From positions 2,580,001 through 2,612,000 of the forward strand of contig NC_014729.1 of assembly GCF_000172995.2 (NCBI RefSeq): DNA of 32,000 bases. The letters run 5' to 3'. Positions 2,308-22,056 of this stretch are shown here, piece by piece. The number at the start of each line of letters is the position of its first letter. Positions within the stretch are counted from its first letter, which is position 1. The DNA comes from Halogeometricum borinquense DSM 11551. GTDB taxonomy: Archaea; Halobacteriota; Halobacteria; Halobacteriales; Haloferacaceae. Made by a program: the position numbers and the translations under genes. The notes below the pieces were generated by a model. The model was not told where the DNA came from and did no database searches. It saw nothing but the letters and a program-made list of their open reading frames with translations.

Positions 2308-2421
2308 ACGTCTCCTGACGGTGCGACCGGTGAAAAGTTGGCTTCATCCGGCCTGAGAGATGAAACAGCTCAGAAAGCAGTTCACGTCTTGGTGACGATT
2401 TCCGTCCGGAACAATTTCAAC

Positions 2422-2429
2422 TTTTTATA
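2422..2429 (+). promoter_or_regulatory. TATA-like box for the 2455 gene (leaderless arrangement)
   Basis: tttttata is centred about 29 nt upstream of the ATG at 2455, the typical haloarchaeal spacing for leaderless transcripts. Confidence 0.45.
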
Positions 2430-2454
2430 CGATTCTCGTGAGGTTGTTGTCACG

Positions 2455-2934
2455 ATGGATGCCAGAGATGTATTTGCCGACGACTCGGTAGCAGATGGAC
2501 ACACTGCCACGACCTCGTACGATAGCGATTCGGCAAGGGGTGATGCACGTATCTCACGTGACGATGCGTTTCGCCTGCTCCAAGACGAACGGCGTCGAGC
2601 AGTCCTCCGTTTCCTCCGCGCGGAGGAGAACAGCGATCCGACGCCGCTTTCGACGCTCACCTCCTTTGTCGCGGGAGTTGCACACCGAGACGGATCAGAT
2701 GGCGATGACAGCGGCGATACCGGTGGCACCCCCGATGCCAAAGCGCAAGACCGCGCGCGTGTTTCACTCCACCACTCACACCTACCGATGCTCGAAGAGT
2801 ATGGCGTTGTCAAATACGACTCAGAGGACGAGACGGTCGAACCGAAACCGCTGCTTGCGGCACTGACCCCGTTTCTCGCGGACGAACCTGCTCCCGAGGA
2901 GATGTTAGTCGTCGAGGCCGAAGCGGCCGAATAG
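2455..2934 (+). CDS. haloarchaeal winged-helix (ArsR-like) protein; from memory, the DUF7344 family
   Basis: ..FRLLQDERRRAVLRFL.. and ..VSLHHSHLPMLEEYGVVKYD.. form the signature of this family. An internal ATG was chosen because the upstream part of ORF 2290.. is non-acidic, and a TATA-like box precedes 2455. Confidence 0.6.
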   Translation: MDARDVFADDSVADGHTATTSYDSDSARGDARISRDDAFRLLQDERRRAVLRFLRAEENSDPTPLSTLTSFVAGVAHRDGSDGDDSGDTGGTPDAKAQDRARVSLHHSHLPMLEEYGVVKYDSEDETVEPKPLLAALTPFLADEPAPEEMLVVEAEAAE

Positions 2935-17306: not shown

Positions 17307-18206
17307 ATGAAGTCAACTACGCCGGTGCGTGGGCGGCGTAGCAAGCGGCTCAAAACCGCTGCCACAGCCGTTCGGACGGGTGGTAATGGAATCACGGGGG
17401 GAGACGGTTCTGGGCGACGGCAGAATTCCGATCAGCGGGGTGATTCGGAACTGTTAGCGCTGTCGGCCGATCCGTACGTCGATGTCGATGACGCTCACGA
17501 ACGGCTTCGGGAGTTACAGGTGGCCTTCGAGGACCGAGGGGACCGCCGTGCGATCTTCCTCTCGGTCTACTCACGGATGACTGGCGCAGTGGCCGAACGC
17601 GTTCGCCAGGGGTATTTCAATGACGCCGACTGGGTGAGAGACTACCTCGTTGTCTTTGCAAACCACTACCGTGAGGCCGTCCACGATTACGAAGCCGGCA
17701 ACACAGCGGACCTGGCCGACGCGTGGCGATTAGCATTCGACGCCGCGGTGCGCGGGGATTCACTCGTCCTCCAAGACCTTGCACTCGGCGTCAACGCGCA
17801 TATCAACTACGACCTCGCGTTGACGCTCGCGACAGTTGGTATCGAGCCGAATCGATCTCAAAAATACGCCGACCACAAAGCCGTCACTGAAATCATCCGG
17901 GACGTGTTCAATGAGGCGCAGAATTCGTTGGCAACGCGTGCTGCCCCCGGAATCAAGACACTCGACGAATCACTCGGGCGACTCGACGAGTGGCTCTGCG
18001 TGTTCACTATCGCCGAGTGTCGAGAAAGCGCGTGGCGGACAGCGGTCGCGCTTGACTCCCGATTTTCGCTTCGACGCCAAGTCGCACGCTGGACCAACGA
18101 CGCCGCTGCCACGGGTGCCGCGCACCTCATCTTGGTCTCCCAGACGAGCGAGCGCGTTCACGATACGCTCCTCATGCTCGAAGGCTCGGCGCACGAAGAC
18201 AACTGA
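17307..18206 (+). CDS. DUF5995-like protein
   Basis: ..AIFLSVYSRMT..V......F.D.DWV..Y...FANHYREA.. and ..LGVNAHINYDLA.. match my recollection of DUF5995. The start is taken at the ATG at 17307, about 25 nt after ttatattgtatta. Confidence 0.55.
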   Translation: MKSTTPVRGRRSKRLKTAATAVRTGGNGITGGDGSGRRQNSDQRGDSELLALSADPYVDVDDAHERLRELQVAFEDRGDRRAIFLSVYSRMTGAVAERVRQGYFNDADWVRDYLVVFANHYREAVHDYEAGNTADLADAWRLAFDAAVRGDSLVLQDLALGVNAHINYDLALTLATVGIEPNRSQKYADHKAVTEIIRDVFNEAQNSLATRAAPGIKTLDESLGRLDEWLCVFTIAECRESAWRTAVALDSRFSLRRQVARWTNDAAATGAAHLILVSQTSERVHDTLLMLEGSAHEDN

Positions 18207-18279
18207 GTCGAACTCCCGGCTATCCGCTTAGGCCGATGCTCGTTCCGAGAATAAATTCGTAAGCGAAGCGTCTCGTCTT

Positions 18280-18333
18280 CCGGATTCTGAACCACACTCG
18301 CTCACTCCGTTCGCTCGCTGGTTCAGAATCCGG
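18280..18333. repeat. perfect 14-bp-stem hairpin with T-arm-like arms and the CTCACTCCGTTCGC core in its loop
   Basis: ccggattctgaacc (18280-18293) and ggttcagaatccgg (18320-18333) are exact reverse complements. The 26-nt loop contains ctcactccgttcgc at 18301-18314. The arm resembles the tRNA-Phe T-arm ccggatttgaacc with one extra base. Confidence 0.9.
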
Positions 18334-18384
18334 TCGGGTCGAACTTTCAGAACCCGCCACGCTCGGTAGTCGGGTTCAGAGAAG

Positions 18385-18470
18385 TGCCGCCTCCCGGATT
18401 TGAACTTCCGGCGAGCAAGCTCGCCGACTCGCCGCTCACTCCGTTCGCGGCGACGGGGACAGCTCGATCT
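18385..18470 (-). other. truncated duplicate of the tRNA-Phe 3' half (positions ~36-73) split by a 48-49 nt structured insert
   Basis: 18385-18405 is identical to 18518-18538, and 18455-18470 is identical to 18540-18555. The intervening 18406-18454 folds into two hairpins (ggcgag/ctcgcc and tcgccgc/gcggcga). No 5' half (acceptor 5' strand or D-arm) is present. Confidence 0.85.
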
Positions 18471-18517
18471 CCCGTGAAGGACAGAAGACTCTCGAACAGA
18501 AATTGTTCGCAGGAAAA

Positions 18518-18591
18518 TGCCGCCTCCCGGATTTGAACCGGGGACAGCTCGATCTTCAGTCGAGTGCTCTCCCAGTCTGAGCTAAGGCGGC
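18518..18591 (-). tRNA. tRNA-Phe: tRNA-Phe (anticodon GAA)
   Basis: The reverse complement is GCCGCCTTAGCTCAGACTGGGAGAGCACTCGACTGAAGATCGAGCTGTCCCCGGTTCAAATCCGGGAGGCGGCA. It folds into a full cloverleaf (7-bp acceptor, CTCGA/TCGAG anticodon stem, loop CTGAAGA, CCCGG/CCGGG T stem). No CCA is encoded. An oligo-T run follows, and an A/T-rich box (tttttgaatc in gene sense) lies about 25-30 nt upstream. Confidence 0.95.
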
Positions 18592-18645
18592 GCGTTTTGA
18601 GAGAGGCCGATGATTCAAAAAAGGGTTTCGATGTGTCGCCGCGCC

Positions 18646-19182
18646 CTACGTCACTTTCCACTCATCGGTGAACGTCTCGTTGCCCGAATTCCACGTCACC
18701 GTCGTGTTCGCCGTCACATGGCCGTCGTTCCGTTTTACGGACAGTGCATCAAGCAAGCCAACCTGAACACGCTTCGTCATCGTTTTCGATTCGCCGGAAT
18801 CGAGTTCCGAGACCGATTCGTTTCCTTGCCAGACCACTGTATCCCCGGTTTCTAACTGAGTCTGAACGGTGACATCCTTCGCCATCTCATCCCCGGTATT
18901 CGTGGCGGTGATAGTCACGTTTCGACAGGTGAACCCGCAGGTCGAGATATTCCAGATATCGAACTCGAACTGCCGGTCATCAGATTGGTCCGCCGTCGAG
19001 TTGGGACTCGCGGCTGAATCGGATACGTCCTGTGGGGCCGAGGTCACTGGTGCGTCGCCGACGGATGCCTGAGCCGCCGGTATCGCACCGGCACCGATAC
19101 CCGATGCGACGACGAGGACGACGACGCCAAGCGTGAATATTCGACCGACCGTTTTGACAGAGTTCCAGCGTGGGAATGCCAT
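18646..19182 (-). CDS. secreted hypothetical protein with an Ig/CARDB-like beta-sandwich domain
   Basis: Signal peptide (..VVLVVASGIGAGAIPAAQA|S), an acidic S/T-rich linker, then ..NVTITATNTGDEMAKDVTVQTQL...ELDSGESKTMTKRV.. reminiscent of CARDB-type domains. Several N-x-S/T sequons are present. Confidence 0.55.
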   Translation of the reverse strand: MAFPRWNSVKTVGRIFTLGVVVLVVASGIGAGAIPAAQASVGDAPVTSAPQDVSDSAASPNSTADQSDDRQFEFDIWNISTCGFTCRNVTITATNTGDEMAKDVTVQTQLETGDTVVWQGNESVSELDSGESKTMTKRVQVGLLDALSVKRNDGHVTANTTVTWNSGNETFTDEWKVT

Positions 19183-19675
19183 GGCAATTGCAGAGTGGTT
19201 CTTAGTAATGAATACTGCGAGAGAATATCAATTCTGATTCTAGCAGAGATTCCTTCTTTTCATGCCGTTCTGTGAAAATTCAGACCCCCAGTCTCGATAC
19301 CGACCGATTACAGCAACTAAACCAGACATATTTCGCCTTTTCCTTGAGATTACCGGGGAAGCATGTGCAGAGATATAGTTGCGCTACTATATACTGGAGT
19401 CAATTTTTTATTTGATATCGGTATCTGAACTTCAACGATGAGTTTCACGAACTCGATACAGCCACCCAGACAGAGCATAAAAACACGCCACCGTATAGCG
19501 ATCCCAGATGCACCGAACAAAAGTGGACTCGGATGGAGTCAGGGGGAGTGCGGTCAGCGCGGCGTTCTGGTCGCAAACAGGCGAACGTACAGCAGACGGT
19601 TCCCCGCGGGAGCAACCGTAGCAGACAGCCAGTAGCGTTGAGCACTGAGTCGAACCACGGCTTCGTCAACCGACA

Positions 19676-20113
19676 TTACAGGCGGCCGCTGCCGACGTAC
19701 GCGAGTCCGAGACTCCCTACGATAATCGACGCGCTGAGTGCGGCTTCGGGCAACTGAAAGAAGTGGTCTCCGAGCGCACCGACCAGTACGAACGCTCCCG
19801 CGACGGCGGCCGGGAGTGGATGCGCCGCCAACTGCCGAACGAAAGCGCGAACCGACCAGTAGACCATCCGCAGTTGCGACGCGACAGCGGCTCCGACCGG
19901 ACGGTTCCCATCCGGATTCTCCGCCGAAACGAACCCGTCGAGGCGGTCGCGGTGAATCGTCACGATTTCACCGGTGTTGCTCCGCCGTCTGTCGGCGTCC
20001 GCAACCCGAAGGAGCGTGACCGTCTCGTCGTCGGTGCCGACAACCCGGTAGACGCCGTCCGAAACAGCTGCGTCGTCTGCCCTGTAATGGTCGTAGATGG
20101 CGGGTGCAGTCAT
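19676..20113 (-). CDS. hypothetical protein (soluble N-terminal domain plus two C-terminal TM helices)
   Basis: Acidic N-terminal ~75 aa and a hydrophobic C-terminus (..LPAAVAGAFVLVGALG.., ..SASIIVGSLGLAYVG..). Codon usage is GC-rich like the host. No recognisable family. Confidence 0.5.
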   Translation of the reverse strand: MTAPAIYDHYRADDAAVSDGVYRVVGTDDETVTLLRVADADRRRSNTGEIVTIHRDRLDGFVSAENPDGNRPVGAAVASQLRMVYWSVRAFVRQLAAHPLPAAVAGAFVLVGALGDHFFQLPEAALSASIIVGSLGLAYVGSGRL

Positions 20114-20260
20114 ATCCGAGCGGTATGTTAGCGAATGAGTATAAAGTTGCAGTCCGAGCGTGGACGCTCACTCGCTTCGTTCGTCGGGACGAACGACTGT
20201 CGATCATTGTCGTGCTTGAAACCCACAAAAAATACTCGTACGGCGATATCTCGGTGTTCG

Positions 20261-20962
20261 TTACCCCGATAGATCATCAATCGTGTAATACACCTTTATC
20301 TCACCAGGATTCCCGCGGTCTGAATCGATTGGCACGTTCTGACTGACTTCCCCGCGTGGACCGCACGCAAGGGTAATGTCCATCGTGTTACTGCCTTCGT
20401 CGGGGCGGCCGGTAAACCAATCCGATGGGGGTTCCCGTTCGGTAACTTTGGTCGTCAGCAGCTTATTCTCAGACCCTCCCTGGGGAACTTTGAAGTTATC
20501 AATCGACGCGCCAAGCGTCTGAGTCGATCCAGTGGGTAGTTTAACGCGAGTGCGTTCGGACTGGCCGCCGTGAATGTCGTGTTCGATTGTCAGCTCTAAC
20601 GCACCCTCTCCCACCCCCTGACCGCTGATAAACTCGACTTTCTCAGCACGGACTGTCACTTCACATTCGTCAGTCCAATCGTCATCGGGACTACCAGCGA
20701 TTGCACCGGTATGAACCTGCACGTGGTCGGGGTTCTCGATGTCAACTTTCTTGATCCCACCGTAGAGGCGGTATCCGTCAGCCTGACCCCATACTGTTCC
20801 GTTCACAGTGCTGCCGTTAACTTGGTCTCCTTGGCCTTTGCTGACGGAAACTCCACCTAGCCTGCCCTCGACTTTTTCGACCTGACCGGTGGCCTGAATG
20901 GTGTAGTCGGATTTTCCATTTCCTAAGCCTTCCATCACGACGTAGTGTTTTGGTTCAGCCAT
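20261..20962 (-). CDS. orphan hypothetical protein, predicted beta-rich, no signal peptide
   Basis: A clean 233-aa ORF with a strong A/T-rich TATA region (taatataatcattaataatg, gene sense) directly upstream. It is G/T/V/Q-rich and visibly lower in GC than its neighbours. I recognise no domain. Confidence 0.5.
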   Translation of the reverse strand: MAEPKHYVVMEGLGNGKSDYTIQATGQVEKVEGRLGGVSVSKGQGDQVNGSTVNGTVWGQADGYRLYGGIKKVDIENPDHVQVHTGAIAGSPDDDWTDECEVTVRAEKVEFISGQGVGEGALELTIEHDIHGGQSERTRVKLPTGSTQTLGASIDNFKVPQGGSENKLLTTKVTEREPPSDWFTGRPDEGSNTMDITLACGPRGEVSQNVPIDSDRGNPGEIKVYYTIDDLSG

Positions 20963-21163
20963 ATCACATCACACATTATTAATGATTATATTACTAACAC
21001 TTGGTTTTTATGCCCGTCCTTCACAAGCACATCGCTGGCAAGTCAGAGAACTGTTCGGTGAGCGTGTCGAACGACCTCTTTTCGGGGGTTGCAGAAGAGT
21101 TGTCGGCGGAGTTGGACGGCTCGCAAAGATGTGAAACTCACTGCTCAAAACGTGCAGAATGGA

Positions 21164-21389
21164 TGGGCTCGGGCGGAGTCGAACCTCGGTCGCTCCACTC
21201 ACTCCGTTCGCTTTGCTCCCTGATTCGACTCCTTGTCGTCCACTCAGACCACGGACGACTTGCTATCGCTCGCAGATTTCAGTGGGCTCGGGCGGAGTCG
21301 AACCACGAGGACGTTGCTTCGCTCGTCCTCTGGGTTCCATCCGACCTCTCGTCGCAGAAATCCTGCTCGCTGTCGCTCGCAGATTTCAG
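21164..21389 (-). repeat. two tandem truncated copies of the tRNA-Val 3' end (T-arm, acceptor 3' strand and trailer) with hairpin-rich spacers
   Basis: tgggctcgggcggagtcgaacc occurs at 21164-21185, 21283-21304 and within the gene at 21390-21411. A 40-nt block, tcgctcgcagatttcagtgggctcgggcggagtcgaacca, is repeated exactly at 21266-21305 and 21373-21412. Spacer hairpins are 21175-21183/21224-21232, 21235-21241/21253-21259 and 21307-21313/21324-21330. Confidence 0.9.
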
Positions 21390-21462
21390 TGGGCTCGGGC
21401 GGAGTCGAACCACCGATCTCTTCCTTGTAAGGGAAGCGTCATGACCACTAGACCACGAGCCC
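21390..21462 (-). tRNA. tRNA-Val: tRNA-Val (anticodon UAC)
   Basis: The reverse complement is GGGCTCGTGGTCTAGTGGTCATGACGCTTCCCTTACAAGGAAGAGATCGGTGGTTCGACTCCGCCCGAGCCCA. It folds into a cloverleaf with CTTCC/GGAAG anticodon stem, loop CTTACAA and GGTGG/CCGCC T stem. Confidence 0.93.
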
Positions 21463-21552
21463 GCACGTCGAACGAAACCGCACATGCGGATAACGGTTTC
21501 CAATTCGTTTCGGTGGCGGAAGCGTTAGGTCCGCGCCATCCGTGGCCCCGGT

Positions 21553-22056
21553 ATGACCGCCTTACGGGACAGGCTCGGCCCCGTCATACTTGCTGTGTTC
21601 ATCGTCGCCTCCGTAGCGGCGGTGGTCGTCGCGTTCAACCCGACGGTTCTCCCCGGCGGCGACCAGTACAACCGGACGACTGTTTCTCTCATCTCCGACG
21701 GCGAACGGGTGGCCGAAGTGAACGTACGAGTCGCGGATACGTACGAAAAACGGTACACTGGGCTCAGCGCCACCGAATCGCTCGGAACGAACGAAGGAAT
21801 GCTGTTCGTCCACGACAGCGAGGGCGAGTACTCCTACGTCATGCGTGACATGGCGTTCCCCCTCGACATCGTCTTCATCGACGCAGATGGTACTATCACA
21901 GCAATTCACCACGCCGAACTCCCGCCCGAGGGAACGCCGGACGGCGGACTGAAGCACTACACCGGGACCGGCAAATACGTACTCGAAGTCCCGTACGGCT
22001 ACACGAACGAGACGGGCGTCGAAGTCGGCGATACGGTTCGCATCGAGAACTACTGA
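21553..22056 (+). CDS. DUF192 domain protein with an N-terminal membrane anchor
   Basis: ..GLS......EGMLFV......YVMRDMAFPLDIVFID.DG.I.. is the DUF192 signature. An N-terminal TM helix is present. Confidence 0.8.
   Translation: MTALRDRLGPVILAVFIVASVAAVVVAFNPTVLPGGDQYNRTTVSLISDGERVAEVNVRVADTYEKRYTGLSATESLGTNEGMLFVHDSEGEYSYVMRDMAFPLDIVFIDADGTITAIHHAELPPEGTPDGGLKHYTGTGKYVLEVPYGYTNETGVEVGDTVRIENY

Follow-up and report, generated by a model that had tools for sequence, protein, structure and literature searches.

Two Putative Members of a Proposed Family of Duplicative tRNA-Trailing Modules behind a tRNA-Val Gene of Halogeometricum borinquense

Introduction

The 3' ends of tRNA genes are the classic landing pads of archaeal and bacterial mobile elements, and tRNA fragments found near such genes are routinely read as the scars of proviruses. 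Integron attC sites and the attP(+) hairpin of CTX phage are single-strand folded recombination sites, in which the stem of the folded strand reproduces the double-stranded target. Here we describe an array of tRNA-Val 3'-end copies on the chromosome of Halogeometricum borinquense DSM 11551 (GCF_000172995.2, NC_014729.1, positions 2,580,001-2,612,000; this whole stretch of 32,000 nt is referred to as the window), together with a family of structured modules to which its units appear to belong.

Several kinds of sequence already described in haloarchaea bear on this array. Partial tRNAs of 22-57 nt bound kilobase-sized islands with integrases in Haloquadratum and Halobacterium (PMC3119063, PMC7002104), and these differ from the modules described here. 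Haloquadratum walsbyi also carries PATEs, SMRs, and MITEs (miniature transposable elements with inverted repeats), small repeats free of a transposase, of which SMR-A targets palindromes (PMC3119063). Lastly, t-elements and the stable tRNA 3' trailers of Haloferax volcanii are tRNA-derived or tRNA-like sequences that are transcribed and can act as processing signals (PMC4326828, PMC3495736).

Results

The tRNA-Val Array of H. borinquense

The array is anchored by a gene for tRNA-Val (anticodon UAC) at 21389/21390-21462 on the minus strand, which was called by ARAGORN and matched Rfam RF00005 with 68.2 bits. All other array features given in this section lie on the same strand. The last 22 nt of the tRNA (TGGGCTCGGGCGGAGTCGAACC on the forward strand, GGTTCGACTCCGCCCGAGCCCA in tRNA sense) occur three times exactly in the window, starting at 21164, 21283, and 21390, with start-to-start distances of 119 and 107 nt, and only the copy at 21390 is surrounded by a complete tRNA gene. 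This is the arrangement that the original prediction for this locus had reported. The window holds no further match with three or fewer mismatches, none of 100 dinucleotide shuffles gave any match, and the chance expectation for three such copies is 0. We refer to a direct copy of a tRNA 3' end as T and to an inverted copy as rc(T), and we use L-numbers as labels of individual loci. In tRNA sense, the locus then reads tRNA, unit 1 (85 nt), T, unit 2 (97 nt), T, and an unrelated trailer.

The first T copy is the tRNA's own end at 21390-21411, comprising the T-loop, the 3' strands of the T-stem and acceptor stem, and the discriminator. Hairpin searches and folding placed hairpin H1 of module 1 at 21355-21389, with a variable stem and the apex C-GA-GC-GACA-GC-GA-G, which combines tandem G.A mismatches with a GNNA loop. 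It is followed by a degenerate inverted copy of the T-loop region (gaggtcggatggaaccc, 21332-21348), a weak assignment because of an insertion relative to rc(T), and by a non-canonical hairpin H3 (21305-21331) with a 7-bp stem, gaggacg/cgtcctc, and the loop agcgaagcaa. The second T copy, an exact match of 22 nt at 21283-21304, closes module 1. Module 2 opens with a chimeric H1 remnant (21260-21282), the first 17-24 nt of which copy the start of module 1 according to block and strain comparisons. Behind it lie a 7-bp hairpin (gtcgtcc...ggacgac, 21235-21259), an inverted copy of the tRNA-Val T-loop and T-stem found among the inverted repeats (aaGGAGTCGAATC, 21222-21234), and a canonical H3 core, AGGGAGC...GCGACCGA, with a GA/GNA apex (21186-21221), to which a covariance model described below matched at 21170-21237 with 52.3 bits. 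The distal third T copy (21164-21185) is exact, carries one substitution in the H. borinquense strain L028 (GCA_040679015.1), and is followed by the unrelated trailer. Under the stacking model discussed below, it would be the oldest copy and the original chromosomal 3' end.

A longer block, 48 nt with 96% identity (21259-21306 versus 21366-21413), is common to the copies at 21283 and 21390. By inspection, the exact run within this block is 41 nt, adding 17 nt of trailer and 2 nt of T-stem to the 22-nt tRNA end, and a string search located a 39-nt exact substring of it. An exact block of 40 nt reaching 17 nt into the trailer had been predicted; the shared block and its trailer are real, and the exact run is one nucleotide longer. 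Hairpins and an inverted T-loop copy in the spacers had been predicted as well, and we found hairpins of 7-10 bp in both spacers and an inverted copy of 12 nt that is 92% complementary (21221-21232 versus 21294-21305). Beyond the shared block, units 1 and 2 have little similarity (mean column identity of 66% in a three-way alignment), so that a head-to-tail likeness over the whole unit length fails and the units are alike only in T and 17-24 nt of trailer. As the units are unlike outside the shared blocks, Tandem Repeats Finder reported no array at this locus. The array folds better than shuffled sequence (z=-2.78).

Two independent assemblies of H. borinquense, GCA_004150395.1 and GCA_000337855.1, reproduce the array base for base, so that it cannot be an artefact of assembly, a possibility that the original prediction had raised against itself. 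The locus in a Logan read assembly is identical through the tRNA-Val gene and stops 6 nt past it. A DUF192 protein encoded beside the tRNA has the same sequence in these three assemblies and is 98% identical in L028. This last strain also has three T copies, and its unit 2, counted from T to T, is 179 nt long versus 119 nt in the window. Unit 2 of L028 opens with a different 77-nt H1-type region and meets unit 2 of the window only at ...GAGCGA|TAGCAAGTCG. As the shared trailer of 17-24 nt is missing from L028, the start of unit 2 was replaced by the start of unit 1 in one lineage. The shared block of 41-48 nt is thus a lineage-specific overwrite and not an ancestral att arm.

A Module Architecture Shared by Many tRNA Genes

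Comparison with other loci gave a common architecture, which in tRNA sense reads H1, a short linker, rc(T), H3, and T. H1 directly follows the discriminator; its stem is free, and the conserved part is the apex, C-GA-(GC|AC)-GNA/GNNA-(GC|GU)-GA-G. The rc(T) element is the inverted T-loop and 3' T-stem strand of the local tRNA (GGGCGGAGTCGAAYC for tRNA-Val), H3 is a second tandem-G.A hairpin, commonly with the core AGGGAGC...GCGACCGRGG, and T is a direct copy of the last 22 nt or so of the local tRNA. Together, rc(T) and T form a long helix that is capped by H3. The base of H3 (cAGG-GA-GC ... GC-GA-CC-GAGG) does not differ between tRNA-Val and tRNA-Phe modules, while rc(T) and T change with the local tRNA. 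The linker between H1 and rc(T), itself unpaired, contains a short motif, (T)GTAT(A/G/C), in units of many loci (e.g., L003, L027, L002, L012, and L081).

Scanning one genome per species with the 22-mer gave 26 haloarchaeal loci, and seven of these (Halobonum, two Halococcus, Halohasta, two Haloferax, and one metagenome-assembled genome) held two or three exact copies with a spacing of 105-150 nt. At least one extra copy with no more than three mismatches in 18 nt was present in about two thirds of the tRNA-Val(UAC) loci with enough downstream sequence (15 of approximately 24). The tRNA-Val loci of Halobellus and Halodesulfurarchaeum had no modules. The same architecture occurs behind a tRNA-Arg gene of Halogeometricum limi (L015), where the T copy is degenerate (4-5 mismatches of 19) and was missed by the stricter screen.

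We then scanned metagenomes with a pattern in which the H3 core is joined to GGTTC. This yielded 84 loci, about 55 of which were genuine, the remaining loci being chance matches in contigs of non-halophiles. The genuine matches lay 41-90 nt past a tRNA or further along an array, and the occupied tRNAs were those for Pro, Leu (UAA, CAA, CAG, and UAG), Asp, Lys, Met, Cys, Thr (2), Gly, Val (3), His, Gln, Arg, and Ser, to which intron-containing tRNA-Trp and tRNA-Met genes were added once introns were allowed. At all of the genuine loci, the arms agree with the tRNA immediately upstream, even where its T-loop is unusual, as with TTCAATT (Gly and His), TTCGACT (Val), and TTCGGAT (Thr). Arrays contain one to five modules and are found at tRNA-Val(UAC), at tRNA-Phe, and at no fewer than 17 other tRNA identities in hypersaline metagenomes.

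A covariance model was built from a 42-sequence alignment and searched against 227 kb, that is, the window and 25 loci. It gave 19 matches with E<0.01, and by coordinates all of these are on the sense strand and just 3' of a tRNA. Rfam 15 recovered only the two window tRNAs at gathering score, and a permissive search of 18100-21600 gave only chance-level matches over the modules. Full-text literature searches that included the loop motifs, and that did not cover Hoelzle 2012 (47 "tRNA-like elements" in H. volcanii), returned no description of the modules, and the family is apparently undescribed. One reading in the original prediction, a stack of ~110-bp miniature elements at the tRNA, is supported by the presence of the same architecture behind many tRNAs in many genera.

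Folding, Covariation, and Strand

The helix between rc(T) and T was assessed in the 42-sequence alignment. Its 11-bp core is formed, and the pair that involves T-loop position 57 is UA in 26 sequences, CG in 14, and UG in 2, and is never unpaired. Overall, 79.3% of cells were paired, compared with 72.3% after shuffling (0/500 shuffles reach the observed value) and 20-43% with slid partners, and both sides had changed in 90 cells versus 46 expected. As the aligned sequences were chosen for at least 8/11 arm pairs, the percentage paired is biased upward, and it is the covariation and the slid controls that are informative. The acceptor part of T equals the tRNA yet pairs poorly: without gaps, pairing stays mostly under 50% past position 12 (57% at position 14), and the five outermost rc(T):T pairs of the fitted alignment are 14-60% paired.

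The hairpins have a clear strand preference. Among 53 non-redundant units, tandem GA/GA internal loops occur 114 times on the sense strand versus once on the antisense strand, and the sense fold is the more stable one in 50/53 units with RNA parameters and in 48/53 with DNA parameters. The tRNA-sense strand is the strand built to fold. The apex hairpins flanked by GA have GC/GC (38) or AC/GT (25) as their inner pair, and their commonest loops are of the form GNA or GNNA (GAA, GGA, GCA, GACA, GTCA, and GATA). In DNA, both C-GNA-G triloops and tandem mismatches of the type 5'-Y-GA-R-3' have unusual stability, and RNA, too, often contains tandem sheared G.A pairs. Because of this, the motif cannot decide between an RNA transcript and a non-template DNA strand.

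Other structured elements were considered for these folds and set aside. The units are not pseudo-tRNAs or t-elements, as neither ARAGORN nor Rfam made a call and inspection showed the CGAGG before a T copy to be unpaired with the 3' strand of the T-stem. By inspection, the symmetric 2x2 G.A loops, with no 3-nt bulge, pseudouridylation pocket, or C/D boxes, do not fit a kink-turn (K-turn), a bulge-helix-bulge, an H/ACA, or a box C/D element; the H1 apex may be K-loop-like. A snap-back or template-switch origin of T-H1-rc(T) was rejected as a full explanation, since the H3 core is non-local and duplicated H1 loops keep their orientation. An analogy of rc(T) to the primer-binding site of a retroelement was likewise set aside, there being no reverse transcriptase context.

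Size, Polarity, and Turnover of the Modules

Measured from T start to T start, the median unit length is 112 nt, with a 5-95% range of 73-149 nt (n=117). None of these approximately 117 units is longer than 182 nt, and no coding sequence was found in the units that we inspected. Copies of the 3' end were present downstream of 65/100 tRNAs, a sample enriched by the manner in which the loci were found, and upstream of 3/103, where all three were tandem tRNA genes. Terminal copies have a mean of 1.54 mismatches of 19 versus 0.95 for internal copies (Mann-Whitney p=0.006), and 29/38 internal copies are perfect. This greater divergence of distal copies is the polarity expected if new units enter beside the gene.

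Related arrays differ by whole modules. At tRNA-Met, one of two closely related genomes has the order A-B-A' (L081) and the other B-A (L087), with flanks that are 93.5% and 82.7% identical. The extra proximal A of L081 is 97.5% identical to the A of L087, while A', its positional counterpart, is 88.5% identical and is without its H3 apex. Haloferax larsenii, Haloferax elongans, and Haloferax sp. S1W have a common first H1, followed by one or two units with reassorted halves, and the first two also have a common downstream flank. Between H. limi and Halobium salinum (L014), the H2/H3 half differs at only 2 of about 68 nt (counted by eye), and the congeners H. borinquense and H. pallidum carry unrelated units. 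A unit with the arms of tRNA-Val(CAC) is located inside a tRNA-Val(GAC) array (L101), both tRNAs having the same acceptor end, and evidently a module was transferred between these two isoacceptor loci. T is often duplicated together with the start of the following H1, as seen in the window (T plus 17-24 nt), in L094 (T plus 29 nt), and in L004 (T plus 57 nt).

Two further arrays are of interest in their own right. Behind an intron-containing tRNA-Trp gene (L040, 3560-3790), two identical 104-nt tandem modules are followed by a third H1 start, which looks like a very recent amplification. Two tandem tRNA-Asp genes have one module in L059 but three or more, differing in type, in L039, where the extra material begins inside an H1-like trailer and not at a T copy.

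Integrative Elements and Searches for attP

In two metagenome loci (L071 and L062), foreign DNA ending in an integrase gene precedes the module in place of the tRNA. The elements are sited between tRNA-Met or tRNA-Val and the modules, at 6698-7711 of L071 and 1-466 of L062. The L071 open reading frame (ORF) matches Pfam Phage_integrase (5e-10), and the fragment in L062 has 41% identity (E=2e-21) with the catalytic C-terminus of the former. The same modules are known from relatives (L065 and L090 for L071, L066 for L062), where they lie beside the tRNA with no element present. At the junctions, only 13-14 nt of the tRNA 3' end are kept and the element side is without H1 or H3. Ordinary integrases therefore work with a core much shorter than T, and their elements enter between the tRNA and a chromosomal module that was already there. 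The modules are not the arms of such elements.

We also looked for attP counterparts of the shared block, a check that the original prediction had proposed. Four pattern scans of IMG/VR (39-mer, 22-mer, H3 core, and H3 core with T arm, exact or degenerate) gave nothing or chance matches. A blastn search of 50,697 phage and 72,556 plasmid records gave only tRNA similarities and no genuine attP match. Among the IMG/VR candidates, L032 proved to be a coding repeat, and 29 matches of one scan were ordinary bacterial or phage tRNA genes.

The tRNA-Phe Array and the Rest of the Window

A second array is found 2.8 kb from the tRNA-Val gene, behind a tRNA-Phe (GAA) gene called by ARAGORN and Rfam at 18518-18591, and its features are likewise on the minus strand. 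By sequence comparison, a partial tRNA-Phe copy (gatcgagctgtcccc ... agttcaaatccgggaggcggca) lies at 18385-18469, its T-stem interrupted by two hairpins that were found by folding at 18428-18454 (GAACGGAGTGAG apex) and 18407-18427. This same interrupted partial copy recurs in other genera (L011, L015, L002, and L018). A module follows at 18278-18384, with an H1-like hairpin at 18344-18384 and rc(T)-H3-T at 18280-18333, the arms of which contain a compensated 1-nt insertion. The covariance model matched 18278-18335 with 43.1 bits (E=5e-9), and this site is outside its training set. The trailer array (18278-18517) also holds an exact copy of the last 20 nt of the tRNA. tRNA-Phe was not used for selecting loci, and copies were present in 6/12 of its loci; the same kind of trailer was found in five other genomes.

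The window is otherwise ordinary chromosome, encoding PGK, GAPDH, NucS, citrate synthase, an ABC transporter, and a creatininase. As had been predicted, we found no integrase in it: the 20 ORFs scanned by Pfam were housekeeping or of unknown function, and tblastn with a haloarchaeal integrase was empty. In L028, a 164-aa "gene" without a Pfam match is called over the tRNA-Val array (2398-2892, plus strand), and its counterparts in the window are the mechanical ORFs 21001-21444 and 21159-21848, both on the plus strand. These calls are probably spurious and caused by GC-rich repeats.

The region between the two tRNA genes (18646-20962) has a G+C content of 0.54-0.58 versus about 0.62 and encodes proteins of 178 aa (weak DUF11), 145 aa, and 233 aa, none with a significant Pfam match. 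The 145-aa ORF is absent from L028, which has a 48-aa call in its place. Upstream of this ORF, the intergenic stretch 20114-20260 contains the apex-type motif GAACGAAGCGAG on the minus strand, and this stretch folds no better than shuffled sequence (z=-1.26).

Discussion

A Duplicative Module Family as the Best Explanation

Our preferred explanation, to which we assign a probability of about 0.5, is that the two units behind the tRNA-Val(UAC) gene of the window belong to a family of non-coding, tRNA-trailing modules of about 90-150 nt that extends across the Halobacteria, and that these modules are duplicative and were stacked by recombination at T. It starts from features that the loci display directly, namely the common architecture, its presence behind many tRNAs, the covariation of its stems, the differences by whole modules, and the decay of distal T copies. 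The modules would be duplicative, largely selfish DNA, spread and reshuffled by recombination between repeated tRNA 3' ends. An incoming fragment or circle of the composition T-H1-rc(T)-H3 would insert via the tRNA body on one side and T, together with a similar H1, on the other. This would place the new unit beside the gene and push the older, original 3' end outward, to decay at the far end. Recombination between T copies would delete units, and microhomologies in the apices (GAGCGA and CGAGG) would give chimeras such as unit 2 of the window. In this strain, the beginning of module 1 later overwrote part of module 2.

Host homologous recombination alone, between genomes or within polyploid cells, could drive such a process in haloarchaea, which are polyploid and recombine between species. 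A recombinase or integrases acting in trans might be an alternative driver, given that each T copy contains the 13-14-nt core that integrases use. The T repeat has a sharp left boundary at the 5' edge of the T-loop, and this boundary, together with the strand-specific mismatches of the rc(T):T hairpin, is reminiscent of attC and the attP of CTX phage. By this analogy, which is speculative, the hairpin may be a site that recombines as a folded single strand and imitates the tRNA target in its double-stranded form. Such an enzyme and folded intermediate are steps that we infer. Extended to its limit, the analogy would make the modules a genome-wide, tRNA-anchored system of gene-less cassettes, about 110 nt long, folding as single strands, inserting at the 5' edge of the T-loop of almost any tRNA gene, each providing a new tRNA 3' end, and moved by a trans-acting recombinase. 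This would be categorically new, and we regard it as doubtful.

Several observations weigh against a family of mobile modules. The original prediction had proposed comparing copy number across strains, and within H. borinquense it is constant, with three T copies in all four assemblies; differences by whole modules were seen among other close relatives. No recombinase, excised circle, or free form was seen, and the viral and plasmid collections that we searched contained no module, so that mobility is deduced only from comparisons of sequences. Recombination alone also fails to explain why rc(T) matches each tRNA, and either selection for the hairpin or a templated step would be needed. Compensatory substitutions have occurred in situ in the H1 and H3 stems of close relatives, which fits a functional RNA at least as well, and the modules of one locus (L103) are 87-91% identical where their flanks are 60-66% identical, as would fit purifying selection on an RNA. 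Finally, a stable tRNA-His 3' trailer of about 60 nt was seen on northern blots of Haloferax volcanii (PMC3495736), which indicates that such trailers are transcribed and can accumulate.

The last three of these points lead to the main rival, in which the modules work as structured RNA, a long 3' trailer that is transcribed together with the tRNA. Here, H1 and H3 would be protein-binding hairpins with tandem G.A pairs and K-loop-like apices, and T/rc(T)/T would act in cis on pre-tRNA folding, 3' processing, termination, or stability, or would release a stable small RNA, with arrays and variation arising as by-products of unequal recombination between the repeats. The confinement of conserved mismatches and loops to the transcribed sense strand, the covariation of the stems, the invariance of the H3 core across tRNA identities, and the better-than-shuffled folding of the window array all speak for a role of this kind. 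However, related genomes have between zero and five modules for the same tRNA (none at the tRNA-Val loci of two genera mentioned above), distal copies decay, and congeners hold unrelated module types at one locus. Moreover, the acceptor part of T is kept identical to the tRNA despite its poor pairing, many modules open with a T-run that could already end transcription, and there is no Rfam family. We therefore consider this explanation less probable than the preferred one. It is compatible with selfish modules, as a module may need to fold or may be co-opted.

A third explanation, which was among those offered by the original prediction, is that the T copies are att remnants of serial proviruses or plasmids with integrases, each shrunk by internal deletion to its two attP arms. 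The extent from T-loop to 3' end is the classic one for tRNA att sites, as in cases of 22-43 nt and 27 nt in Haloquadratum and Halobacterium (PMC3119063, PMC7002104), and integrase-bearing elements do target these tRNAs. On the other hand, the tightly distributed units are too short for a gene remnant, and no gene fragment was found in them; a single hairpin architecture recurs across tRNAs; and no attP match was found. The actual elements leave only their short core and ends without H3 or H1, and the same modules stand beside the tRNA in element-free relatives. Remnants of serial integration and excision are therefore very improbable here and already largely refuted. Local tandem duplication, in which slippage or unequal crossing-over would have copied the tRNA 3' end with its trailer before drift set in, had also been offered for this locus. 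It is very improbable as the sole cause and is probably just one process acting on existing modules: it accounts for the co-duplication of T with the trailer start in three arrays and for the identical tandem modules of L040, but the window units are of different types beyond the shared block and form no array for Tandem Repeats Finder, the shared trailer is absent from L028, and the inverted copy, the H3 core at other tRNAs, and the near-identical modules across genera are left unexplained.

The module family has consequences for how haloarchaeal genomes are interpreted. Many tRNA "scars" in these genomes belong to a coherent family of structured modules of about 110 nt behind tRNAs of most identities, which always have both an inverted and a direct copy of the local tRNA tail and turn over between close relatives. 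If the modules are mobile, they represent a new kind of miniature element and a tractable model for how any tRNA gene can be targeted and regenerated, as both Haloferax and Halogeometricum can be grown in culture and Haloferax is also accessible to genetics. If the tRNA-anchored cassette system were true, it would be a new class of archaeal mobile element with a new mode of tRNA-gene targeting. If instead the modules act as RNA, they are a widespread and unmodelled class of tRNA-trailer RNA with tandem-G.A hairpins that bears on archaeal tRNA maturation. For annotation, spurious ORFs are to be expected over the arrays, and predictors of att sites and proviruses will misread them; the covariance model now finds the modules.

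Comparison with Known Systems

The att duplications made at tRNA genes by tyrosine recombinases (e.g., SNJ2-type) resemble the modules in that a direct repeat of the 3' part lies downstream of an intact tRNA, with the proximal copy keeping the gene functional while the displaced copy decays. In contrast to these, the modules have no integrase or element body between the repeats, which are spaced by about 110 nt and not by kilobases, and they carry an inverted T-loop copy and conserved hairpins, whereas the real elements have a core of only 13-14 nt. CRISPR arrays also alternate direct repeats, of 22-25 nt in this comparison, with unlike spacers, and they are polar, with older units distal to the "leader". 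The module spacers, however, are 65-100 nt long, structured, and mutually homologous, and the repeat is the tRNA's own 3' end. In the window, the spacers are 85 and 97 nt (not 25-50 nt) and related to units elsewhere, and no cas domains were found among the ORFs scanned. With t-elements and tRNA trailers, the modules share the placement of tRNA-derived or tRNA-like sequence beside stable RNA genes, but they are not cloverleaves, the 5' strand of the T-stem being unpaired with the copied 3' strand.

PATEs, SMRs, and MITEs are alike in being non-coding, palindrome-rich sequences of about 50-110 bp that are numerous in haloarchaea, variable between strains, and mobilized in an enigmatic way. Unlike the modules, which are flanked by a 22-nt repeat of their target, PATEs and SMRs make no target duplication and have no tie to tRNAs. 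PATEs derived from IS200/IS605 have subterminal hairpins and a target of 4-5 nt without target duplication; in the units here, hairpins lie near both ends, and a 22-nt repeat flanks each unit. MITEs have fixed terminal inverted repeats and a short target-site duplication, whereas the unit ends here are not inverted repeats; the arms of a module change with the tRNA, with rc(T) internal and T terminal, and what is repeated is about 22 nt of the target.

Integron attC sites and the CTX hairpin are imperfect hairpins of about 60-140 nt in which structure matters over stem sequence and unpaired features are strand-specific, and they occur in tandem arrays with polar addition beside a fixed site. 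The modules match this pattern in being imperfect hairpins with covarying stems and GA/GA loops on one strand only. Their arms (...TTYGAAC / GGTTCRAAT), however, do not fit the RYYYAAC/GTTRRRY boxes of attC, and the module "cassettes" are gene-less and scattered over many tRNA genes in place of a single platform. With regard to intI and attI, the 20 scanned ORFs of the window included no integrase, and other loci were not searched for one. The module family thus borrows from att duplications, from the small repeats of haloarchaea, and from attC-like hairpins, while failing the defining tests of each.

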